A stretch of DNA of 64,000 bases, from the NCBI GenBank assembly GCA_037137575.1, contig JBAXKB010000002.1, forward strand, positions 1,833 through 65,832. The letters are read 5' to 3'. The notes under the pieces are model-generated. The model ran no database searches, had not been told where the DNA came from, and saw nothing but the letters and a program-made list of their open reading frames with translations. The translations under genes and the position numbers were made by a program. Positions 2,150 to 13,326 of this stretch are shown here, one piece after another; position 1 is the stretch's first letter; each line of letters opens with the position of its first letter. The DNA is from Actinomycetes bacterium (GTDB lineage Bacteria > Actinomycetota > Actinomycetes > S36-B12 > UBA5976).

Positions 2150-5100
2150 TTAGATTTCTTCGACGCTGAGTGCCTCGCGGCGCGACAGATCGATACCTAG
2201 TTCTTCAGCAGTGCGGAAGACTTCTTCAGCGGTGTCGCGCAATTCGATTGCTTGACCATCGCTTGAAAGTACTTCGACGTTGAGACATAGTGACTGCATT
2301 TCTTTGATAAGCACCTTGAATGACTCTGGGATGCCTGGCTCAGGAATGTTTTCACCCTTAACAATTGCCTCGTATACCCGAACACGACCAAGTACATCGT
2401 CAGACTTGATGGTTAGGAGTTCCTGAAGTGCGTATGAAGCACCGTATGCCTCAAGCGCCCAAACTTCCATTTCACCAAAGCGCTGACCACCGAACTGTGC
2501 TTTACCACCGAGCGGCTGTTGCGTGATCATTGAGTAAGGACCGGTTGAACGTGCGTGGATCTTGTCGTCTACCAAGTGGAGAAGTTTCAAGATGTATGCG
2601 TAGCCAACTGAAATCTCGCCTGGGAATGGCTCACCGGAACGGCCGTCGAACAATTTAGCCTTTCCGTTTTCGCCAACCAAAGTTAGACCTTCACGAGTTT
2701 TCAAAGTTGATGACAACAAGCCGGTGATTTCTTCTTCGCGAGCACCATCGAAAACTGGAGTAGCAAGATTTGTGCGTGGCGGAATCGACTTGTGGCCGGA
2801 CTTAATCAAATGCTCTGCCCAAGCAGGCTCGCCTTCGATTTCCCAACCCTGTGACGCAATCCAGCCAAGGTGCAATTCAAGAATCTGACCAATGTTCATA
2901 CGACCAGGAACACCAAGTGGGTTCAAGATCACATCAACAGGGGTTCCATCTTCCAAAAATGGCATATCTTCCGGTGGAAGAATCTTGGCAATAACACCCT
3001 TGTTACCGTGACGGCCAGCAAGTTTGTCACCTGCCGTGATTTTGCGCTTCTGCGCGATGTAGACACGAACCATCTGGTTAACACCAGGAGCTAGTTCGTC
3101 ACCGTCTTCAGATGAGAAGACCTGAACGCCAATAACTTTTCCGGATTCACCATGTGGCACCTTAAGTGAGGTGTCGCGAACTTCACGCGCTTTCTCGCCG
3201 AAGATAGCACGAAGTAAACGCTCTTCTGGAGTTAGTTCGGTTTCACCCTTAGGAGTTACCTTGCCAACAAGAAGATCGCCTGGCACAACATCGGCGCCAA
3301 CGCGGATGATGCCACGCTCGTCGAGATCGGCTAGAACTTCATCTGAAAGATTCGGAAGATCACGAGTAATTTCTTCTGGACCAAGCTTGGTATCGCGAGC
3401 ATCGATTTCATGCTTTTCGATGTGGATCGATGAAAGAACATCGTCTTGTACCAAACGCTGATTCAAAATGATCGCGTCTTCGTAGTTGTGACCTTCCCAT
3501 GGCATGAATGCCACGAGTAGGTTACGACCAAGAGCCATTTCACCGTTGTCAGTACTTGGACCGTCAGCCAGAATTTGACCATCTTCAACACGGTCACCTT
3601 CGTTAACGATTGGCTTCTGGTTGTAGCAAGTGCCCTGGTTTGACCGGCTGAACTTACGAAGTGCGTAAGTAACATGCTTGCCAGCATCTTCTTCAACCGA
3701 GATTGAGTCAGCTGAGACTTCAGTGATGACGCCGCTACCAGTTGCAACGATTACATCGCCAGCATCTTTAGCTGCGCGGTATTCCATGCCGGTACCAACG
3801 AATGGTGATTCAGCGCGAAGTAACGGCACAGCCTGACGCTGCATGTTGGCACCCATGAGTGCGCGGTTTGCATCGTCGTGCTCAAGGAACGGAATCATTG
3901 CTGTTGCAACAGAAACCATCTGACGTGGTGAAACGTCCATGAAGTCAACTTCGTCGCCAGTTACGTAATCGACTTCGCCGCCCTTTGTGCGAACCAGCAC
4001 GCGCTGATCCTGGAAGGTGTTGTCTTCATTAAGTAGCGAGTTAGCCTGCGCGATAACGTGCAAGTCTTCTTCGTCGGCAGTTAAGTACTCAATCTTGTCG
4101 GTGACTTTACCCTTTGAAACCTTGCGGTAAGGAGTCTCGACGAAACCGAATGCGTTGATGCGAGCGAATGTTGAAAGCGCGCCGATAAGACCAATGTTTG
4201 GACCTTCAGGAGTTTCAATCGGACACATACGACCGTAGTGCGATGGGTGAACGTCGCGGACTTCGAAGCCTGCGCGCTCACGAGACAAACCACCGGGACC
4301 AAGCGCTGACAAACGACGCTTGTGGGTAAGGCCTGAAAGTGGGTTGGTCTGATCCATGAACTGTGACAACTGTGAAGTTCCGAAGAACTCCTTGATTGCT
4401 GCAATGACTGGACGAGTGTTGATCAAGGTAAGCGGAGTAATCGCTTCTGGATCCTGAGTAGTCATGCGTTCGCGAACTACGCGCTCCATACGAGAAAGAC
4501 CGGTACGAATCTGATTCTGGATTAGTTCGCCAACGGTACGCAGACGACGGTTACCAAAGTGATCGATGTCATCAACTTCAACACGAGTTGTGCCACGCTC
4601 TGACTGGAATTCAGTTTCGCCTGCATGCAAACGCACCAAGTATTCGATAGTTGCAAGAATGTCGCTTACTTCAAGAACGGTCTTGGTTGGATCTGTGGTT
4701 AGACCAAGCTTCTTATTGACCTTGTAACGACCGACCTTTGCCATGTCGTAACGCTTTGGATTGAAGTAGAAGTTGTTTAGCAAACTACGTGATGCTTCAA
4801 CGGTTGGTGGTTCACCTGGACGCAGCTTGCGGTAAATATCGAGCAACGCTTCATCTTGTGTAACGGTTGTGTCTTTGTCCAAGGTGCTCATCATTGATTC
4901 GTAAGCACCGAACTGGGTGCGAATGTCTTCGTTGGTTAGACCAAGTGACTTTAGGAAGGTAGTTACGTGCTGCTTACGCTTGCGATCGATACGGACTGAA
5001 ACGATGTCCTTTTTATCGATTTCAAATTCAAGCCAAGCGCCACGGCTAGGAATAATTTTTGTGGTGAAAACATCTTTGTCAGAAGACTTGTCGATTGAAC

Positions 5101-5614
5101 TTTCAAAGTAAACACCAGGTGAGCGAACAAGCTGCGAAACAACTACGCGCTCGGTGCCGTTGATTATGAAAGTGCCCATCTTGGTCATAAGTGGGAAGTC
5201 GCCCATGAATACGGTCTGGCTCTTGATTTCGCCAGTCTCGTTGTTCATGAATTCTGCATTCACATACAGTGGCTGCGAGTAAGTAATGTCTTTATCGCGA
5301 CATTCATCTTCGGTGTACTTCGGATCATCAAAGCCAGGCTCGGTGAAGGTCAACGACATCTGGCCGTTGTAATCCTCGATTGGGCTGATTTCAGAAAATA
5401 CATCTTCAAGACCAGGGGTCTGCGGAATTTCGCTGTTGCCGGATTCAAGTGCAGCAGCCACGCGGGCTTTCCACACATCGTTTCCAAGTAACCAATCGAA
5501 TGATTCCATCTGAAGCGCTAAAAGATTTGGAGCTTCTAGAGGCTCACGAATCTTTGCGAATGAGACCCTCTTTGGGCCAGTGGAACTGCGGGAAGTTGAG
5601 CGCGAGGATGCCAA
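2150..5614 (-). CDS. rpoB: DNA-directed RNA polymerase subunit beta
   Basis: 1154-aa ORF with hallmark RpoB motifs ([46 protein letters not shown]). TTG start at 5614 is preceded by GGAAGGA about 6 nt upstream. Confidence 0.98.
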
Positions 5615-5994
5615 GGGTGTTCCTTCCGAACTGCTAGTGAAGCCATAACAAAGTAGACATAGTCAAATGCACAAAGGCACAAGATTAGTCTGTTTTGGGG
5701 TATGGCGAAGTTACAGCATACCTAGAGGCGGTTGCCGCTGTCCAATGCAGGGAGTTTTTTGCGAAAAACCCTCGATTTTTCGGGCTTTTTCCCTGTGCTG
5801 GACAGCTGATCCAGGTGAAAAGGCCGATTATCATCGGTTTTGCGCAATTCCCGCGTGAGCGTTACCTACAATTCGGGCTAAAAACCCTTATTTTGCAGTG
5901 CTCGATGGGTCTTGCAGTTATCTTGCTTGCTCATCGTTGCCTACTTTCGGGCATCCGTCAAGCACCTAGGCAAGAAATGTTGAGAAGTGGGCAC

Positions 5995-6032
5995 AAAAAA
6001 GTGTGGGCAGATCCAATTGGATCTGCCCACAC
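5995..6032 (-). terminator. Rho-independent terminator/attenuator between rplL and rpoB
   Basis: Perfect 14-bp stem GTGTGGGCAGATCC / GGATCTGCCCACAC (6001-6014 / 6019-6032) with an AATT loop. It is followed on the minus strand by T6 (complement of A5995-6000), 16 nt after the rplL stop. Confidence 0.85.
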
Positions 6033-6047
6033 TTAAAAGTAAATAAA

Positions 6048-6434
6048 TTACTTAAGGGTTACCGTTGCGCCTGCGCCTTCAAGAGATGCCTTGGCTGCCT
6101 CAGCGGCATCCTTTTTGACCTTCTCAAGTACTGGCTGTGGTGCGGCTTCAACTAGGTCCTTTGCTTCTTTCAAACCTAGGTTTGTTAGAGCGCGAACTTC
6201 CTTGATAACGGCAATCTTCTGTGCGCCGCCATTTTCAAGGATGACATCGAATTCATCCTGTTCAGCAGCAGCAGCGCCATCGCCGCCACCGGCTGCAGGC
6301 GCAGCAGCGACAGCAACAGGTGCTGCAGCGGTTACGCCGAAGACTTCTTCGAACTGTGAAACAAATTCTGACAACTCAATGAGAGTCAGTTCTTTAAAGG
6401 CATCGATTAAATCGTCGGTGCTGAGCTTAGCCAT
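6048..6434 (-). CDS. rplL: 50S ribosomal protein L7/L12
   Basis: 128 aa with an Ala/Gly hinge and the C-terminal [24 protein letters not shown] motif. It sits downstream of rplJ. Confidence 0.97.
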
Positions 6435-6485
6435 GATGGCTTCCTTCCAGTCGGGGGCTAGTAGGCCCTTTGTTAGTTGAGGGGC

Positions 6486-7232
6486 CTAGCCCTCGGTCGT
6501 TTCTGCTTCAGCGGGCGCTTCAGCACTTTCTTCTGTTGCAACTTCGGCTACTACCTCATCGGCAGGTGCTTCAGTTGCGTCCGTTGTTACCTCAGCGGGT
6601 GCTTCGGCAACTGTTTCTGTCTCAACGGGTGCTGAGGCAGATTCAACGTTTTCGGTAGCTACATCAGATGCAGCTGGTTCGCTTGAATCAGCAGGTGCGC
6701 TTGCAACTGCTGGTGTTTCTGTTTCGACCTTGGCGCGCAGTGCGTCGACGGTACGAACAACCTGAGATAGCGGAGCCTGGAACAATGCAGCAGCTTTCGC
6801 CAATGCAGCATTCGCAGCGCCAGCCACCTTGGACAACAGAACTTCACGTGATTCAAGTTTGGCTAGCTTCTTGATATCGTCGGCAGTTAGGAATTTTCCA
6901 TCCAAAATGCCGCCCTTGATAACAAGTAGCGGGTTTTGTTTAGCGAAGGTGTCTAAGCCTTTGGCAGCAGCTACTGGGTCGCCTTTAATAAAAGCAATTG
7001 CAGTTGGGCCAACGAGTAAATCGTCGAAACCAACAACTCCAGCATCTTTTGCCGCAATCTTTGACAATGTGTTCTTCACAACGGCGTATGTGGTGTCAGA
7101 TCCAAGAGAACGACGAAGTTCCTTTAGTTGACCCACAGTTAAACCGCGGTACTCGGTCAACACTGCAGCAGATGAAGCACGGAATTCTTCCGTGATTTCT
7201 GCAACTGCAGCGGCCTTGTCAGCGCGTGCCAT
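6486..7232 (-). CDS. rplJ: 50S ribosomal protein L10 with ~78-aa acidic C-terminal extension
   Basis: [43 protein letters not shown] is a typical L10 N-terminus. I chose the ATG at 7232 (AAGGAG 5 nt upstream) rather than the ORF-track start at 7280. The tail is rich in E/A/P/T. Confidence 0.93.
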
Positions 7233-7262
7233 GATGCTCCTTGAATGTCGTGGCACCACAAT

Positions 7263-7292
7263 AAAAAAAGCCCCGCGCAAGTAAGGCGGGGC
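7263..7292 (-). promoter_or_regulatory. Terminator-like hairpin plus T7 inside the rplJ 5' leader (candidate L10-leader attenuator)
   Basis: GC-rich 7-bp stem GCCCCGC / GCGGGGC (7270-7276 / 7286-7292) is followed on the minus strand by TTTTTTT. It lies about 30 nt upstream of the rplJ ATG, and no upstream minus-strand gene exists for it to terminate. Confidence 0.55.
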
Positions 7293-7549
7293 AACACGCT
7301 AAAAGCGTTTCGCTCAATCTGACCTGCGCTGGCGCTCCAGTTGTGGAGCCTTAGCCTCAAGGTTCTTGGTTTCCCAAGTTCCCTTGATGACCGGCGGTCT
7401 TCGGTTTGTTAATAGAACTTTAGGGGGTTCGGGGGTAGCGAGTCAAAACGGCGAAGAAATAACCTGCTATTCGAACCTTTAAACTGAGGTTTCTTCTGGA
7501 TTTCATAAAAATACGCGAGTACAACACAAAATCCACAGGCAAAATCTAT

Positions 7550-7578
7550 TGACATTCCTTTGTCTGACGTTGTTTTAT
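7550..7578 (+). promoter_or_regulatory. Sigma70-like promoter for the 7605-8131 cassette
   Basis: Perfect -35 TTGACA (7550-7555), 17-nt spacer and -10 TTTTAT (7573-7578, 4/6 match). It lies about 27 nt upstream of the ATG at 7605 in an AT-rich intergenic stretch. Confidence 0.5.
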
Positions 7579-7604
7579 AGGTTTGTGCAATTTACTTTGC
7601 TGGA

Positions 7605-7838
7605 ATGCCCAGCAAAGGTATCCGAGTTTTAGCGTCAGCGTTACGCCACGGCATTGCAAAAGCCGACATCTTGCACGCCATTCGATTGCCTTTACGAATA
7701 TTTGATCAGGATGATGGCATTAAGTTCATCATCGGGCCAAGCAGATCCGGCGAACTACTTGAAGTCGCCTTTCGAATTCATGAAGGTGAATTAGTAACTT
7801 TCCACGCTATGCGTGCCCGAGATAAATACCTACGGTGA
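7605..7838 (+). CDS. Small hypothetical protein, candidate toxin of a type II TA-like pair (BrnT/RelE-fold-like by eye)
   Basis: 77-aa ORF. The pattern RHGIAKADILHAI...IIGPSRSGELLEVAF...GELVTFHAMRARDKY resembles small BrnT-type toxins (HGV..ee...; G....G.lL.V......iISAR.A...E...Y). Its stop overlaps the next ORF's start (GTGA). Confidence 0.45.
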   Translation: MPSKGIRVLASALRHGIAKADILHAIRLPLRIFDQDDGIKFIIGPSRSGELLEVAFRIHEGELVTFHAMRARDKYLR

Positions 7839-8131
7839 TAAACATGAAACCAGCAGAAAATGATGATTTTGATTACGAAGCGGCAAGTCAACTTGCATTC
7901 GAATACGAGCTTTCTGACGAAGCAAAGGACGCTATCCGCATATTCTCCACCCTCGAGCTAACTCGAAAAAACATGAAGAAAGCTCAGATTGAACTGGAAG
8001 TTGCTATCAAAGAAGCCTACGATTTCGATCAAGGATGGGGCGCAGTTGCTTCGATGCTTGGAATCGCCGAATCTGAAGCCGAAAATCAATACGGGTCACT
8101 TATAAAGAAGAAACCAAAGAAGTCCGCTTAA
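7835..8131 (+). CDS. Small hypothetical protein, candidate antitoxin partner
   Basis: 98-aa ORF with a GTG at 7835 overlapping the upstream stop (alternative ATG at 7844). It has an acidic N-terminus, a helical middle and a Lys-rich tail (LIKKKPKKSA). No family was recognised. Confidence 0.4.
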   Translation: MINMKPAENDDFDYEAASQLAFEYELSDEAKDAIRIFSTLELTRKNMKKAQIELEVAIKEAYDFDQGWGAVASMLGIAESEAENQYGSLIKKKPKKSA

Positions 8132-8154
8132 ATTTTCCAAAATTTTCACGCAAT

Positions 8155-8187
8155 AAAAAACTGGCCGACACTAAAAGTGCCGGCCAG
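8155..8187 (-). terminator. Rho-independent terminator after rplA
   Basis: Stem CTGGCCG.CAC / GTG.CGGCCAG (8161-8171 / 8177-8187) with one internal mismatch and a TAAAA loop. It is followed on the minus strand by TTTTTT, 14 nt after the rplA stop. It may also stop the convergent + strand cassette. Confidence 0.75.
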
Positions 8188-8200
8188 TTCAATGAAGTTA

Positions 8201-8920
8201 TTAGTTGTCTTCGTCTTCAGCAAGCAGGTTGCGAGTCAGGTTGGAATCAATCTGAATGCCAGGGCCCATCGTGCTGGAGATTACAGCCTTGCGGATGTAA
8301 CGACCCTTGGATGATGATGGCTTAATACGCAAAATTTCATCCAAAGCAGCAGCATAGTTTTCAACAAGCTGAACTTCGGTGAAAGATGCCTTACCGATGA
8401 TGAAGTGCAGGTTCGAGTGCTTATCAACACGGAACTCAATCTTTCCACCCATGATGTCAGATACTGCCTTGGCAACATCCATAGTGACTGTTCCAGTTTT
8501 TGGATTTGGCATCAAGTTTCTTGGGCCAAGAACTTTACCTAGTCGACCGACTTTACCCATCAAGTCTGGGGTTGCAACGACAGCATCAAAATCTGTCCAA
8601 CCGCCTGAAACTTTGTCGATGAGATCGTCAGAGCCAACAAAGTCAGCACCAGCCGCGCGTGCTTCGTCAGCCTTTTCACCGGTAGCAAAGACCAGGACGC
8701 GAGCGGTCTTGCCTGTGCCGTGTGGAAGGTTGACAGTGCTACGCACCATTTGATCTGCCTTACGCGGATCGACACCAAGCAACATCGCAATTTCAACAGT
8801 CTGATCGAACTTAGTTGAAGTAGCGCCGGCCTTAGCTAAACGCACTGCAGCCAATGGGCTATAAAGTGCATTTTTGTCGATAGTCGCGGCAGCTTTGTTA
8901 TAAGCCTTACCGTGCTTCAT
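8201..8920 (-). CDS. rplA: 50S ribosomal protein L1
   Basis: 239 aa with [35 protein letters not shown] and the position downstream of rplK. Confidence 0.97.
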
Positions 8921-8991
8921 TTCTTTCTCCTTTGATTGTTGTGGAGGTCGTGGTTAGAACCTGAAGCAGGTTCTCCCACTTGTCGTGATGA
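8921..8991 (-). promoter_or_regulatory. Structured rplK-rplA intergenic RNA (possible L1 autoregulatory site)
   Basis: The minus-strand RNA reads GUGG-GA-[GAACCUG CUU CAGGUUC]-UAA-CCAC and then AAAGGAG before the rplA ATG. A GGGAG-containing helix-loop-helix recalls L1-binding sites. This is inference only. Confidence 0.25.
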
Positions 8992-9420
8992 TTAACTGAC
9001 GGTTACACCCATAGAGCGAGCGGTACCTTCAATGATTAGCATTGCGGCATCAATGTCGTTTGCATTGAGATCAACAAGCTTTTGTGCAGCAATTTCGCGT
9101 ACCTGGTCTTTAGTGATGTTTGCGACCTTGTTGGTATGCGGAACTCCCGAACCTTTTTCGATGCCAGCAGCTTTAAGAATTAACTTTGCTGCCGGTGGGG
9201 TCTTGGTGACAAATGTGAAAGTACGATCTTCATAAACCGTAATTTCAACAGGAATCACCTGACCGCGCTGGCTTTCTGTCTCAGCGTTGTACGCCTTGCA
9301 GAAATCCATGATGTTTACACCATGCTGGCCAAGTGCTGGACCAACGGGCGGAGCAGGGTTTGCTTCGCCAGCTTTGATCTGTAGCTTGATCAGACCGGTG
9401 ACCTTTTTTGATGGGGCCAT
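8992..9420 (-). CDS. rplK: 50S ribosomal protein L11
   Basis: 142 aa with [35 protein letters not shown], the classic L11 N-terminal domain. Confidence 0.97.
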
Positions 9421-9441
9421 GTCTTTTGCGTCCTTTTTCTT

Positions 9442-10347
9442 TTAGTTCTTCTGGATCTGGTTGAAGCCCAGCTCCACGGGAGTCTCTCGGCCGAAAATTT
9501 CGACCAGACCCACGACTTTTTGTGCATCCAAGTTAATCTCTGAGATTGTTGCATGCAGGGTGGCAAATGGACCGTCCACAACCATGACGGAATCGCCAAT
9601 GTTGAGATCGATCTCAAATTTCGGTCCAGAATTACCCTTGGCGCGTGCCGCTGGTGCAGAATTACCTGCTGCAGCAACAGTTGCCAATGGCTTCTCAACC
9701 GGCGGACGAAGCATGCCAAAAGCTTCATCCAAAGTTAGTGGCGCAGGGTTGTGACCCTGCCCAACAAATCCAGTTACGCCTGGAGTGTGGCGAACCGCAC
9801 CCCAAGATTCGTCGGTTAGATCCATGCGCACAAGAACATATCCTGGGAACTTGTTGCGCTTAACAACCTGACGCTTGTCTTTCTTGATTTCAGTTACTTC
9901 TTCTGTTGGAACAGCAACTTCAAAAATGAAATCTTCCATCGATAGCGAAATAGTGCGGGTCTCGATGTTTTGCTTAACCCGATTTTCAAAACCTGCGTAG
10001 GAATGAAGTACATACCATTCACCAGGAAGAAGTGACAAGCGAGTGCGGAATGCCTCGGCTGGATCTTCCTCAAGTTCTGGCGCGGCTTCTTCAACGGCTT
10101 CGATAGTTGCTGCTTCTGCGTCTGCAGAGTCGCCAGCGATTTCAGCTTCGATTGCAGCGCTTAAGTCAAAGCTAACTGTTGCATCATCTGCTACTTCGCC
10201 AGCAACATCTACATCGGCAGAGCCGGTGTAATCGTTCTCGGTGATTTGCACAGCGTCATCGTTGGCAATCGGTTCTGCAATTTGCGCAGCATCTACTGAC
10301 ACTTCATCTTCTGATGAAGTTGCCTGCAAGAAAGTTGGGTCTGACAC
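9442..10347 (-). CDS. nusG: Transcription termination/antitermination factor NusG (with acidic N-terminal extension)
   Basis: 301 aa. An NGN domain ([21 protein letters not shown]) and a KOW domain ([21 protein letters not shown]) follow about 100 acidic residues. It lies between secE and rplK. Confidence 0.95.
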
Positions 10348-10362
10348 TCTGGGTTTCCTTAC

Positions 10363-10578
10363 TTATCCGAAAATCTTTAGTACGGCTTTGGTGAAGCCAA
10401 AGTCCATTGTTGCCACTATTAAAGCAAGTACAGTTACGAAAACTACAACAACAGTTGTGTAGGTGATTAGCTGTTCACGGGTCGGCCAAACAACTTTTTT
10501 AAGTTCAGCAACAACCTGACGCAGAAACAATGCAAAGCGCGCAAATGCATTTTGTCGCGCAGCGGTCTCAGTGCTCAT
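10363..10578 (-). CDS. secE: Preprotein translocase subunit SecE
   Basis: 71 aa with a single C-terminal TM segment and FLRQVVAELKKVVWPTREQLITYT. It has the conserved position between tRNA-Trp and nusG. Confidence 0.9.
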   Translation of the reverse strand: MSTETAARQNAFARFALFLRQVVAELKKVVWPTREQLITYTTVVVVFVTVLALIVATMDFGFTKAVLKIFG

Positions 10579-10639
10579 GATTTCCTCTCGTCTTGCTTTG
10601 TACTTAATTCCTACTTGCGTGAGTAGTTACTCACACGAG

Positions 10640-10712
10640 CAGGGCCGGAGGGACTCGAACCCCCAACCGCTGGTTTTGGAGACCAGTGCTCTACCAATTG
10701 AGCCACGACCCT
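10640..10712 (-). tRNA. tRNA-Trp (anticodon CCA)
   Basis: Reverse complement AGGGTCGTGGCTCAATTGGTAGAGCACTGGTCTCCAAAACCAGCGGTTGGGGGTTCGAGTCCCTCCGGCCCTG folds as a cloverleaf with anticodon loop CUCCAAA. No CCA is encoded. Confidence 0.95.
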
Positions 10713-10914
10713 CGGCCTATTCTTGCCCTGCCTAACAGCACCACTTTTGGGCATGCTTGCGCAGAATAAGAATTGTGTCGGAGTGTCAAGTGTAGCCCAG
10801 AATCGTCAAAGTAAAAACCGAGATAGTTGAGAATGGCTCACTCAGATATTTCTCATGCTTTGCAACGATTACCTCGAATTCGCAAGGGCATGCGCAAACT
10901 ACTAACCTTGCAGT

Positions 10915-12117
10915 ATGAGTAGCGAAAAACCTCGAATTTCTGCCCGAATTGGCGCGATTGCTGAATCTGCGACCCTTGCTGTTGATGCCAAAGCCAAAGC
11001 TTTAAAGGCCGCTGGTCGCCCGGTCATCGGATTCGGCGCAGGTGAACCAGACTTTCCAACACCGCACTACATTGTCAAAGCTGCAATCGATGCCTGTAGC
11101 GATCCAAAATGGCACCGTTACACGCCAGCAGGTGGACTTCCCGAATTGAAGGCCGCTGTTGCTGCCAAGACACTTCGTGATTCTGGGTATGCCGTTGATG
11201 CTAGCCAGGTTCTTATTACTAACGGTGGCAAGCAAGCTTTGTACAACGCCTTTGCAACTTTGCTCGATCCAGGGGACGAAGTGCTTTTGCCAGCTCCTTA
11301 CTGGACGACATATCCAGAATCAATTCGCTTAGCTGGTGGCGTGCCGGTTGAAATCATGACTGATGAATCAACTGGTTACCGAACTTCCGTTGCGCAACTT
11401 GATGCCGCGCTAACTCCTAATACAAAAGTATTGGTTTTTGTTTCACCGAGTAATCCAACCGGTGCGGTCTACTCGCCTGCCGAAGTAGAAGCAATCGGAC
11501 AGTGGGCAGTTGAAAAAGGTCTGTGGGTTGTAACTGACGAAATTTATGAACACTTGGTTTACGGTGATGCTGAATTCACATCCATGCCCGTTGTTGTTCC
11601 AGAACTTGCCAACAAGTGCATCGTCGTAAATGGTGTTGCTAAAACTTACGCCATGACCGGTTGGCGCGTTGGCTGGATGATTGGCCCAAACGATGTAATC
11701 AAGGCAGCAACAAACTTGCAGTCACATGCAACATCGAATGTTTCTAACGTGGCACAGATTGCAGCTCTTGCTGCAGTATCTGGCGATTTATCTGCAGTAG
11801 ATGAGATGAAGGTGGCATTTGACCGTCGTCGCAAGCTAATCACAGCAATGCTCAACGAAATTGATGGAGTGACCTGCCCAGAACCTGAAGGTGCTTTTTA
11901 TGTTTACCCATCAGTAAAAGGCGTCTTGGGCCGCGAGTTCAATGGCAAGGTAGCAAATACATCAGCCGAACTAGCTGCTTTGATTTTGGATGAAGTTGAA
12001 GTTGCCGTTGTGCCAGGCGAAGCTTTTGGAACGCCAGGTTACATTCGCTTGTCTTACGCACTGGGCGATGCTGACCTTATTGAAGGCATCACCCGAATTC
12101 AAAACTTCCTCAAGTAA
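10915..12117 (+). CDS. Pyridoxal-phosphate-dependent aminotransferase, class I (aspartate aminotransferase-like)
   Basis: 400 aa with [15 protein letters not shown] and [17 protein letters not shown] (the PLP-lysine region), typical of AspC-type enzymes. Confidence 0.9.
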
Positions 12118-13326
12118 TTAAGCTGCGGTTGCGCGCTGCAATCGTAGTTCTTGAATTTGGGTAAGTGGTTGGTGATTTTTCTTGAAAACCATTTGAGCTA
12201 GCTCGCTTAACTGTCGAGTTATTTCATGTTTTGGTTGAACTTTGGCTAGAAAATCGCAATTTAGTTCCGCGTGCTCCAAAGCATTGGAATCATCAGGCAG
12301 ACAGACAACCTGCTCGATTCCGGTATGCCTTGTAATCAAATGTGATAATTCTGTAGCCGATTTACCGTTACGACACCGATTCAAAACCACATAGATCTCT
12401 TGATTGCGCAGGGCATCTTGATTATCAATAACTCCGCGAATTAGCCGAGTAACCGAAACTGTATTCGCAATTGCACATAAGACAACAACTTTCGCATTTG
12501 AAATTGCTGATTGCGATACGGCGTCTCGATCCACCAAATTTACTTCGGGCTGCGAATTTTCGATTGGACAAAATAATGGCCCAACATCCACGATGACATT
12601 TCCGGAATTGATTAGCCGCTTCCACATTCGCTCGAGCGGTGCTCGGCGCAAAGCTGGCCAAAGCGAACTATGGGATATCCCCGGCACAATGACCAAGTTT
12701 TTTTCAACCACTGCAAGTTCATTTAACTCGTAATTATTTCGCTCTGGTGCAACTTTTAATTGACTCAGTTGCAGTAGGTCTGTACTGAGTGATGGCAAGT
12801 TGAGTTCTTGCTGAAGTGAAGCGCCATAGGTATCGCCCTCAACGATTAAAGTTTGTGAACCTTGCTTTGAACCCCACCAACCCAGTTCCTTAGCCACAAG
12901 TGAGCGTCCGACTCCGCCACCGAAACTAGCAACACAAATAAATGTGTGCTCCGTTGAAGCTTCTTGCTGTTGAGTTGATTCTGTTTGGGCGCCAATTTTA
13001 GATATTTGCAAGGCAATTGCGAATAAATCTGAGTGGTCAAATCCAACTACTTTTTGCACACCCAGATCGTTCCATCGATCTATCGAATTCGAAATTGCAA
13101 CAACAACGGCGTTTGCATCGTGAAGCTGCGCGAGCGCATTTTCATCTATCCGTAATGTTTCATCGGTTACGATTACCACGTCAATTTCATTAACTTGTAC
13201 GGCTGCTAATAAATCGATTCCATCAACACACCGGCGCACTACTTTTAGATTCAGCATCGGATGCGAAAGAACCGAAACAAAATCAGCCTCCCAGTCTGTG
13301 TTGCCTAATGCCAGTGCAACTTTCAT
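12118..13326 (-). CDS. Ssd/CpaE(TadZ)-like ParA/MinD-family protein with receiver-like N-domain and degenerate Walker A
   Basis: 402 aa. The N-terminal ~120 aa look like a CheY-type fold (MKVALALG...IDVVIVTDE). The P-loop region reads ICVASFGGGVGRSLVA, with Arg where the Walker lysine is expected. ATGA overlap with the upstream SAF gene. Confidence 0.6.
   Translation of the reverse strand: MKVALALGNTDWEADFVSVLSHPMLNLKVVRRCVDGIDLLAAVQVNEIDVVIVTDETLRIDENALAQLHDANAVVVAISNSIDRWNDLGVQKVVGFDHSDLFAIALQISKIGAQTESTQQQEASTEHTFICVASFGGGVGRSLVAKELGWWGSKQGSQTLIVEGDTYGASLQQELNLPSLSTDLLQLSQLKVAPERNNYELNELAVVEKNLVIVPGISHSSLWPALRRAPLERMWKRLINSGNVIVDVGPLFCPIENSQPEVNLVDRDAVSQSAISNAKVVVLCAIANTVSVTRLIRGVIDNQDALRNQEIYVVLNRCRNGKSATELSHLITRHTGIEQVVCLPDDSNALEHAELNCDFLAKVQPKHEITRQLSELAQMVFKKNHQPLTQIQELRLQRATAA

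Follow-up and report, generated by a model that had tools for sequence, protein, structure and literature searches.

A probable RelS-RelI-family toxin-antitoxin operon, present in divergent versions at one site between ribosomal protein operons of freshwater actinomycetes

The two small genes located between the rplKA and rplJL operons of the analysed DNA (a contig stretch of 64,000 nucleotides, hereafter called the window) very probably form a functional chromosomal type II toxin-antitoxin (TA) operon of the RelS-RelI family, in which the toxin gene precedes the antitoxin gene, as judged from homology and structure modelling. Such a system is of an ordinary kind, but its place is not: in related freshwater actinomycetes, a pair of this type is always found at the same spot, in very different versions. 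RelS-RelI corresponds to Rv2663-Rv2664 of Mycobacterium tuberculosis, whose complex is available as PDB 9SDC (PMC13284704, June 2026). The two window proteins are homologous to the two chains of this complex, which supports the type II TA operon proposed in an initial annotation of this DNA.

The rplJ gene (6486-7232, minus strand, taking the ATG at 7232 as its start) and the rplA gene (8201-8920, minus strand, followed by rplK, nusG, secE and tRNA-Trp) are separated by 968 bp, with two plus-strand ORFs inside; rplL is located at 6048-6434 on the minus strand. This ORF layout bears out the opposite-strand two-gene cassette that the initial annotation had placed between the two operons. The same annotation regarded the locus as otherwise invariant, which proved incorrect: 54 of 69 sampled Actinomycetota species have an rplA-rplJ gap of more than 500 bp with varied cargo, the ORF calls being approximate in those high-GC genomes. 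The idea that Actinomycetota usually have a TA module in this gap was also rejected, the cargo elsewhere consisting of lipoproteins, ATPases, transporters and enzymes. In a presence/absence comparison, the TA cassette was missing from the nearest reference genomes. The closest reference RplA is 79% identical and belongs to Candidatus Nanopelagicales MAGs. In the literature searched, no paper describing a TA at the rplA-rplJ junction was found, and Rfam revealed no known RNA in the rplJ/rplA spacer or in the rplJ leader.

Neither an integrase nor a tRNA gene is present at the cassette insertion site. Two candidate edges of a mobile element, a 12-nt direct repeat (7434/8227) and a 10-nt inverted repeat (7488/8106), were discarded as both are at chance level, and the second is not kept in locus L090. 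On the rplJ side, a consensus scan called an rplJL promoter-like site at 7417-7446 on the minus strand (TTGACT, 18 nt, TAAAGT). This site is directed away from the cassette and its -35 element forms the left edge of the conserved flank. The sequence GAGTCAAAA is kept in three of four aligned sequences (the window, L090 and L086), the fourth (L094) having CTAGTCAAAA.

The relS-like toxin gene (7605-7838, plus strand, 77 aa) was identified by homology, modelling and dN/dS. Its product matches RelS (9sdc_C) with an E value of 1.5e-4 as a single sequence and of 2.3e-12 (50 bits) as a profile, and PHROG 17063, described as 'toxin', with an E value of 1e-10. The AF2 model (pLDDT 92.5, pTM 0.81) adopts a RelE/BrnT-like (RNase T1-like) fold. 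With Foldseek, the top match of this model was BrnT 3u97 (TM 0.65, probability 1.0), and 7vd7_A was also matched; the PDB library used here for both the toxin and the antitoxin models predates 9SDC, so that RelS-RelI is absent from it. The confident model, the BrnT match and the RelS homology together agree with the initial reading of the first protein as a small BrnT/RelE-fold toxin. The check suggested at that time against the Pfam families BrnT_toxin (PF04365) and DUF4258 was negative, the window toxin having no Pfam match at E values up to 10. Among 56 toxin homologues, none matched BrnT_toxin and six matched DUF4258 faintly.

RelS cuts 16S rRNA within the CCUCC of the anti-Shine-Dalgarno core, after C1520 and before U1521, and its toxicity needs K9, H10, H64 and R69, with a contribution of R4 (PMC13284704). 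At the four essential positions, the window toxin has R14 (K replaced conservatively by R), H15, H67 and R72, which are putative catalytic or RNA-binding residues; H15, H67 and R72 are invariant in the 56 homologues. It is possible, although unlikely, that the toxin is active on an RNA target unlike that of RelS, such as mRNA on or off the ribosome (as for BrnT and RelE) or another rRNA or tRNA site. The toxin is indeed only about 35% identical to RelS in the aligned region, has L9 at the position of RelS R4, ends with a shorter C-terminus and finds in BrnT its best available structural match. However, all four essential residues of RelS are retained and no other sequence matches nearly as well as RelS (E 2.3e-12 vs. 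0.57 for BrnT).

The relI-like antitoxin gene (7844-8131, plus strand) encodes 95 aa from an ATG at 7844, or 98 aa from an alternative GTG at 7835. The ATG is probably the start, because gene callers chose it on P0003-P0005 and on 100%-identical contigs, because other alleles begin with MP(R/K)S at the aligned position, and because a putative Shine-Dalgarno-like GGTGAT (7834-7839, plus strand) is found 4 nt upstream. This motif overlaps the toxin stop codon TGA (7836-7838). The GTGA described as a start/stop overlap is present at 7835-7838 but is likely not the true junction, the ATG being favoured. With a toxin stop at 7836-7838 and an antitoxin ATG at 7844, the two genes are tightly coupled, toxin first; in other alleles, the two ORFs overlap by 4-8 nt.

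Profile searches link the antitoxin to RelI (9sdc_A), with E values of 7.3e-8 and 2.5e-11. RelI was also the top PDB match of a profile restricted to window-type sequences, with a marginal E value of 0.026, and the window antitoxin searched against the PDB as a single sequence gave no match. The partner of the toxin is thus a divergent RelI homologue and not, as had been suggested, the representative of an undescribed antitoxin family. Its AF2 model (pLDDT 77) contains helices at residues 11-20, 25-58, 66-72 and 76-86, i.e. an N-terminal helix of acidic character, then a long central one and, at the C-terminus, a pair resembling a helix-turn-helix. This pattern agrees with the published description of RelI (N-terminal helix, loop, long dimerising helix, two short C-terminal helices). 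Foldseek against the library predating 9SDC gave only weak helix-turn-helix matches for this model, and neither an N-terminal strand nor a match to a ribbon-helix-helix family was found.

The antitoxin gene ends with codons for a basic C-terminal tail, KKKPKKSA (8105-8128, plus strand). This peptide does not vary between alleles whose antitoxins share, in the remainder of their sequence, 13-28% identity with that of the window. Against a profile from which window-type sequences had been left out, the window antitoxin reaches 38.5 bits, falling to 19.6 bits once the tail is removed; the tail therefore accounts for about half of the score that links this antitoxin to the other family members. 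The tail is limited to antitoxins at the ribosomal locus and is missing in family members located elsewhere. Its conservation merely as flanking DNA was rejected, because its codons differ synonymously in distant loci (L093, L092, L084 and L001) and because L095 has a K/R-swapped tail, KRKTKRTA. Among 1.84 billion representatives, an exhaustive search with the antitoxin profile retrieved only three clusters (50% identity), and the tailed subfamily is therefore tiny.

Against same-allele relatives, the dN/dS is 0.05-0.07 for the toxin gene (dS 0.40) and 0.16-0.23 for the antitoxin gene, and the dS of both ORFs equals that of the flanking genes. The homologues contain no stop or frameshift. These ratios, far below 1, confirm that both ORFs are coding and, at the level of sequence comparison, that both genes are under purifying selection. 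Scans of the two proteins against Pfam (E up to 10), NCBIfam and PADLOC (PADLOC-DB 2.0) provided no usable match, the matches to Prok-E2_E and MamA being at chance level. Both proteins lie outside the Pfam and NCBIfam models, which fits their naming as hypothetical proteins in public records. The NCBI record for the toxin bears this name. Early word-indexed searches retrieved only near-identical metagenome proteins.

Upstream of the toxin gene, a promoter-like element is present at 7549-7578 on the plus strand (TTGACA at 7549-7554, an 18-nt spacer and TTTTAT at 7573-7578). Both hexamers had been reported and do exist, but with TTGACA at 7550-7555 and a 17-nt spacer; as TTGACA in fact occupies 7549-7554, the spacer is 18 nt. 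The -35 element is invariant across four same-allele relatives and the -10 region is variable. The consensus scan did not call this site, because its -10 lacks an A at position 2, and it found 2 promoter-like sites in the region vs. 1.8 in shuffles. A promoter belonging to the cassette is thus plausible from its sequence and its invariant -35, but with its weak -10 it does not exceed chance when taken alone.

A perfect 9-bp inverted repeat, CTTTGCTGG / CCAGCAAAG (7595-7617, plus strand), surrounds the toxin start. In the RNA, its 5-nt loop would hold the toxin AUG (7605-7607), upstream of which no Shine-Dalgarno sequence was found. This hairpin is present in the MFE structure, but the z-score of the whole segment is only -0.8, no better than shuffles; it is identical in same-allele relatives, without covariation support. 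At the other end, the hairpin said to close the unit (8161-8187) is real, at 8159-8189, but is mainly the intrinsic terminator of rplKA: the scan called it for the minus strand, where a U-run follows rplA, and it folds at -26 kcal/mol on this strand vs. -19.9 kcal/mol on the plus strand, where there is no U-run. It belongs to the conserved flank, outside the variable body of the cassette, and is possibly used in both directions.

From these elements, and by analogy with RelS-RelI, the following functioning can be proposed. Homology and modelling predict the first protein to be a 77-aa RelE/BrnT-fold ribonuclease with RelS-type residues, and the second a RelI-type four-helix antitoxin. As in the structure and experiments on RelS-RelI (PMC13284704), the antitoxin would dimerise via its long central helix, and its acidic N-terminal helix would cover and block the basic active face of the toxin. 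Free toxin would halt translation by RNA cleavage, as proposed from a homologue about 35% identical; the likely target is 16S rRNA, cut at its 3' end within the anti-Shine-Dalgarno region, and the exact target may differ in this divergent member. The operon anatomy suggests that toxin translation is held low, because its AUG lacks a Shine-Dalgarno sequence and would sit in a hairpin loop, and that antitoxin translation is higher, because of the GGTGAT site and of a start 5 nt past the toxin stop. Transcription would stop at the hairpin common to the cassette and rplA.

The metagenomic comparison shows that, in this freshwater actinomycete lineage, the spacer bounded by the rplKA terminator and the rplJL promoter is a fixed slot for TA pairs. 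In 16 out of 16 distinct metagenomic contexts, the TA site lies between rplJ and rplA (L092 being without the toxin); L001-3 and L084-94 were found via the antitoxin, and L095-96 via a 79-aa toxin (P0043). Identity is only 33-45% between the alleles, against 89-95% in the flanks. No DNA similarity to other alleles at the site could be detected in the variable body of the cassette (7451-8088, plus strand), which has sharp breakpoints at about 7450 and 8089. BLAST thus aligned L094 to the window at 2959-7450 (95.1%) and 8089-13119 (89.0%), with nothing between, and the alignments of L086, L095 and L084 end at 7449-7459. The toxin and antitoxin of L094 are 40% and 33% identical to those of the window, with a saturated dS. 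The flanks of L090 are only 87.3% identical, yet it carries the same allele as the window. In L092, the promoter, palindromes and antitoxin are kept and the toxin is lost by a clean deletion, which is exactly what a TA pair would tolerate. L001 has a second TA pair (PIN + PhdYeFM) inserted at the same slot. Because whole cassettes differ between close relatives, these data indicate either replacement via flank recombination or long-lived alleles.

Such diversity could also result from an arms race with phages, the same TA proteins being selected for anti-phage abortive infection. The very divergent alleles with sharp breakpoints and near-identical flanks would fit this role, as would the PIN + PhdYeFM pair added in L001; the toxin match to PHROG 17063, the presence of RelS/RelI-like pairs on IMG/VR viral contigs and a family member (L103) adjoining HEPN and DUF499 genes point in the same direction. 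We nevertheless consider this role unlikely: no PADLOC model was matched (PADLOC-DB 2.0, E up to 10), the site contains no further defence genes in the window, the analysis revealed no link between the window pair and any phage, and RelS-RelI has no reported defence phenotype.

Most alleles at the site, and many family members, present twin perfect 12-bp CAAGTTAACTTG palindromes over the promoter, the two copies being 27-28 bp apart in the other alleles. The twin CAAGTTAACTTG co-occurs with an antitoxin helix, GEAARQRYG, and is absent where this helix differs, which fits autorepression by DNA binding. In the first report on RelS-RelI, inverted repeats were not found ahead of relS, nor was there any sign that RelI binds DNA, a question left open (PMC13284704); the twin palindrome and its matching helix make it testable. 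The window allele has lost both the twin palindromes and the GEAARQRYG helix, and is therefore probably not regulated through this operator. A degenerate remnant, GCAATTTACTTTGC, of the palindrome GCAAGTTAACTTGC (7587-7600, plus strand; three mismatches to CAAGTTAACTTG) occupies the same position ahead of the toxin start as the palindrome of the family. A near-perfect copy, CAAGTCAACTTG (7884-7895, plus strand; one mismatch), is found inside the antitoxin ORF; it is the sole match to the family palindrome with at most one mismatch in the window and is kept in all five window-type loci.

It is conceivable, albeit doubtful, that the slot is dedicated and recombination-swapped, the divergent RelS/RelI alleles being under balancing selection from phages or strain incompatibility. 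If this were true, RelI-type antitoxins would be sequence-specific repressors of the twin CAAGTTAACTTG operator via GEAARQRYG, contrary to the first report, and KKKPKKSA would be a functional add-on of a locus-specific subfamily, as a degradation signal or a nucleic-acid anchor. The window allele would be free of operator control, with a GGUGAU that pairs only with the AUCACC part of 16S rRNA; as AUCACC would stay intact after a RelS-type cut, antitoxin synthesis could continue on cleaved ribosomes. The many deeply divergent TA alleles of this slot, together with an orphan antitoxin and a second, stacked TA, form a natural allele series between highly conserved ribosomal genes, in which TA turnover, cross-neutralisation and selection could be studied for streamlined planktonic bacteria.

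The pair may also have been domesticated as a regulator of ribosome synthesis, either with the antitoxin acting through its helix-turn-helix and basic tail on the adjacent control regions of rplJL or rplKA, or with growth-rate coupling via back-to-back promoters. The pair stands beside the rplJ promoter-like site in all loci found, the basic tail is exclusive to the locus-specific subfamily and under protein-level selection, and the DNA upstream of the toxin gene is 96% conserved among same-allele relatives despite a dS of 0.4. This role is very unlikely, however, as the family behaves as plain TA in unrelated contexts, and as the cassette and its promoter are swapped between close relatives while the rplJ leader is unchanged, unlike what is expected of a tuned regulator; moreover, in the window the family palindrome is absent from the control regions of both rplJ and rplA. 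Family members at other genomic places and on viral contigs have genes of the same order and size, so the module, by this comparison, does not need ribosomal neighbours. Finally, that the ORFs are chance or decaying frames, as their hypothetical names and the lack of Pfam, NCBIfam or PADLOC matches might suggest, is refuted by significant homologues with a solved complex structure, a dN/dS of 0.05-0.23 with a dS equal to that of the ribosomal flanks, a confidently predicted toxin fold, and frames intact at all loci examined except for the toxin deletion in L092.

Among the known systems, RelI is reported to be similar to ClpC2 (PMC13284704). The broad antitoxin profile matches the N-terminal helix-turn-helix region of ClpC2 (Rv2667; 8ada_A) with a non-significant E value of 0.13, and ClpC2 is not itself an antitoxin. 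HigBA and MqsRA, which are toxin-first RelE-superfamily systems, share with the window pair the gene order and the need for more antitoxin than toxin per operon, but their antitoxin folds are unrelated. BrnT-BrnA of Brucella abortus (3U97) also has the toxin gene first, with a KHG-type motif, and is the best structural match in the library predating 9SDC (TM 0.65); however, the window toxin has no PF04365 match, its sequence similarity to BrnT is not significant (E 0.57) and its partner is all-helical, of the RelI type. BrnA is a ribbon-helix-helix antitoxin.

RelS-RelI is closest to the window pair: toxin first (77 + 95 aa vs. 78 + 85 aa), four essential toxin residues kept, the same acidic N-terminal helix, long helix and helix-turn-helix-like pair in the antitoxin, and a family limited to Actinomycetes. 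The window pair differs by its divergence (about 35% identity for the toxin, less for the antitoxin), by L9 in place of R4 and a shorter toxin C-terminus, and by the extra tail KKKPKKSA. No upstream repeats were reported for RelS-RelI, whereas most relatives of the window pair, although not the window allele, have twin CAAGTTAACTTG; in addition, the pair occupies a fixed site between ribosomal operons. The range of RelS-RelI is thereby extended from mycobacteria to uncultured freshwater actinomycetes.

A 968-bp spacer lies between rplJ (6486-7232) and rplA (8201-8920) in the window. Two ORFs are found inside it on the plus strand, while rplL (6048-6434), rplJ, rplA, rplK, nusG, secE and tRNA-Trp are all on the minus strand. 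Judging from its sequence, this pair is a type II toxin-antitoxin operon, genuine and under selection, that adds a divergent member to the RelS-RelI family. The central idea of the initial annotation, a toxin-antitoxin cassette, stands, and all the features it listed were found in the sequence, with corrections of detail. ORF1 (7605-7838) encodes 77 aa and ORF2 (7835-8131) encodes 98 aa from a GTG or 95 aa from an ATG at 7844. This ATG is more likely to be the antitoxin start than GTG 7835: it was picked by gene callers for the homologous proteins P0003-P0005 and for identical contigs, it aligns with the MP(R/K)S N-terminus of the other antitoxin alleles, and GGTGAT (7834-7839) is located 4 nt upstream. 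The promoter-like elements TTGACA and TTTTAT are indeed present on the plus strand, but at 7549-7554 and 7573-7578, with a spacer of 18 nt rather than 17. This promoter was not called by a consensus scan because its -10 element has no A at position 2, and promoter-like sites were no more frequent in the scan than in shuffled sequences. The hairpin at 8159-8189, first taken for a private terminator of the cassette, is called as a terminator of the minus strand, following rplA; its folding energy is -26 kcal/mol there versus -19.9 kcal/mol on the plus strand, and only the minus strand has the U-run after it. The GC content of the cassette (0.43-0.45; window 7300-8200) is slightly lower than in the ribosomal genes on either side (0.46-0.55).

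The rplJ flank has features of its own. The 5' leader of rplJ (7233-7415, minus strand) is highly conserved in relatives, with a stable fold (-72.6 kcal/mol, z -3.9). Its terminator-like hairpin with a U-run (7270-7287) lies shortly before the start codon, and the leader matched no Rfam family, even at E up to 1. The C-terminus of RplJ (248 aa) is extended by about 75 residues, with a high proportion of Ala, Glu, Thr and Val; this extension matches Pfam RL10_C weakly, or faintly in relatives, and is less conserved than the rest of the flank.

The RelS-RelI complex of Mycobacterium tuberculosis (Rv2663-Rv2664; PDB 9SDC) was published in June 2026. The RelE/BrnT-like RNase RelS cleaves 16S rRNA in its anti-Shine-Dalgarno core, between C1520 and U1521, and RelI is a new helical antitoxin, with a remarked likeness to ClpC2, whose N-terminal helix lies over RelS residues K9, H10, H64 and R69 (PMC13284704). 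Neither ORF product had a match in Pfam, NCBIfam or PADLOC. As a single sequence, the ORF1 protein matched PHROG 17063 'toxin' (E 1e-10) and the RelS chain 9sdc_C 'Toxin' (E 1.5e-4). A profile of seven toxin alleles of this locus reached RelS at E 2.3e-12, versus only E 0.57 for BrnT. The four essential RelS residues align with R14, H15, H67 and R72 of ORF1, the last three being unchanged throughout 56 homologues. BrnT was the top structural match (TM 0.65) of the ORF1 AlphaFold model (pLDDT 92.5) in a PDB library older than 9SDC. The assignment to a BrnT/RelE-type fold is borne out by the sequence matches and the predicted structure. The antitoxin had been suggested to represent an undescribed family. 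Although ORF2 as a single sequence had no match in the PDB, the RelI chain 9sdc_A was matched by a profile of ORF2 and two distant relatives (E 7.3e-8) and by a broader family profile (E 2.5e-11), which rules out this suggestion. The broader profile also matched Rv2667/ClpC2 weakly, in agreement with the published likeness. With an antitoxin profile restricted to the window type (the window allele and its same-allele relatives), RelI was still the top PDB match, at a marginal E of 0.026. Conversely, a profile without window-type sequences scored the window antitoxin at 38.5 bits with its tail and 19.6 bits without it. The ORF2 model (pLDDT 77) predicts helices at 11-20, 25-58, 66-72 and 76-86, the same arrangement as in the published RelI. 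These matches and predicted models place both proteins in the RelS-RelI family, the window antitoxin being a very divergent member.

Compared with the same-allele relatives (L090, L002, L003 and L001), the toxin shows a dS of 0.40-0.43 and a dN/dS of 0.05-0.07, and the antitoxin a dN/dS of 0.16-0.23; dS in the adjoining ribosomal genes is 0.10-0.43. No stop or frameshift was found in the pair at any locus, and these ratios confirm that both ORFs are conserved as coding. The same strain as in the window was found in nine metagenome contigs (99.8-100% identity). At one locus (L092, 1177-1529), the toxin is cleanly deleted and the promoter is kept with an orphan antitoxin: twin palindromes and a GTG come right before the antitoxin gene and its good Shine-Dalgarno sequence. 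This is exactly the loss that a toxin-antitoxin pair would tolerate.

The cassette and its flanks have different histories. Contig L094 is 95.1% identical to the window over 2959-7450 and 89.0% over 8089-13119, with no alignment in between; its toxin and antitoxin are only 40% and 33% identical to those of the window, with saturated dS. The flanks of L090 are more distant (87.3%), yet it has the window's allele and the alignment runs straight through. In all cross-allele comparisons, the left breakpoint falls at 7449-7459, just past the promoter-like -35 of rplJ (TTGACT, 7441-7446, minus strand), and the right one within or past the last codons of the antitoxin. The window toxin shares 36-43% identity with the other alleles of this locus versus 45-49% with family members elsewhere. 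The histories of flanks and cassette are therefore uncoupled: either whole cassettes were swapped by recombination in conserved flanks, or old alleles have persisted across species. In L001 (400-1052), a PIN toxin and PhdYeFM antitoxin pair lies on the minus strand between the stop of the RelI-like gene and the rplA terminator (equivalents of window positions 8131 and 8151), so this slot can hold more than one toxin-antitoxin system.

We then considered the rplA-rplJ gap across 69 Actinomycetota species in which both genes could be reached (in 11 more, rplJ is beyond 6 kb). The gap is <500 bp in 15 species and ranges from 544 bp to 5.7 kb in the other 54; in this phylum, the view that the locus is otherwise invariant does not hold. 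Gap cargo elsewhere includes lipoproteins, KaiC/DnaB-like ATPases, transporters and enzymes. The junction is a common insertion point, with gaps from 217 bp to >5.7 kb and recurrent LppX/LprAFG lipoproteins and KaiC/DnaB-like ATPases (L004-L083). Among reference genomes, the closest are Candidatus Nanopelagicales MAGs (RplA 76-79% identical); three out of four lack the cassette (L004, L006, L040; gap 217-298 bp), and in the fourth (L005) rplJ is outside the flank covered. In 16 out of 16 distinct metagenomic contexts, reached via the antitoxin (L001-L003, L084-L094) or the 79-aa toxin P0043 (L095-L096), the pair occupied the rplJ-rplA gap and was encoded on the strand opposite to these genes. 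The cassette is fixed in its own lineage.

An exhaustive profile search of 1.84 billion representatives returned only three 50%-identity clusters for this antitoxin. This tailed subfamily is small and was at the rplJ-rplA locus in all cases found. RelS-like toxins at large are numerous (577 at E ≤1e-3), and at the loci elsewhere a RelI-like gene of 84-99 aa is always next: in a glycosyltransferase region of a Nanopelagicales MAG (L097), beside cutA in Mobilicoccus (L099), in Tamaricihabitans (L104), beside HEPN and DUF499 genes (L103) and on high-GC viral or prophage contigs from IMG/VR (L115-L118), in agreement with the PHROG match of ORF1. RelI-like proteins elsewhere end just past the RYG motif. 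The antitoxins of the rplJ-rplA locus end in KKKPKKSA, with the variants PKKPKKSA (P0006/L084) and KRKTKRTA (L095). The tail codons show synonymous differences in L093, L092, L084 and L001, so the peptide is the target of selection; as a guess, it might act as a protease signal or a nucleic-acid contact.

With the exception of the window type, all alleles of the locus have the palindrome CAAGTTAACTTG in two perfect copies 27-28 bp apart, the second ending about 5 nt upstream of the toxin start. These twin 12-bp copies lie over the promoter in L084, L086-L089 and L091-L095. Elsewhere, L104 has two one-mismatch copies at the same spacing (2957-2995), and L099 (3984) and L097 (3136) a single copy each, at -17 and -16. 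In all palindrome-bearing loci, which come from several genera, the antitoxin helix reads GEAARQRYG or closely resembles it; palindromes are absent from the window type (helix SEAENQYG) and from L103 (AEAAAAEYG). Because palindrome and helix co-occur, RelI-type antitoxins may be able to act as operator-binding repressors. The window allele has a degenerate copy only (7587-7600) upstream. Within its antitoxin ORF lies a copy with one mismatch (7884-7895), kept across the allele group; nowhere else in the 64-kb window is there a match with fewer than two mismatches. In this allele, the toxin AUG would also sit in the loop of a hairpin formed by a perfect 9-bp inverted repeat. A Shine-Dalgarno sequence precedes most antitoxin genes and no toxin allele, which would fit the lower translation of toxin than antitoxin proposed for toxin-first operons (PMC13284704). 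The antitoxin site GGUGAU (7834-7839) is complementary to AUCACC, which a RelS-type cut (CC|UCC) would leave in place at the 16S rRNA 3' end (the host 16S gene is outside the window); other alleles have GGAG-type ribosome-binding sites, and the pairing may be a coincidence.

Beyond adding another toxin-antitoxin system, this locus is of interest for its fixed ribosomal slot with swapped alleles and for the basic tail specific to the subfamily. The M. tuberculosis pair has no upstream inverted repeat, no such palindrome was reported for it, and operator repression by RelI was not demonstrable there (PMC13284704). Unlike it, the relatives found here pair a putative operator with a particular antitoxin helix, which makes DNA binding by RelI testable.
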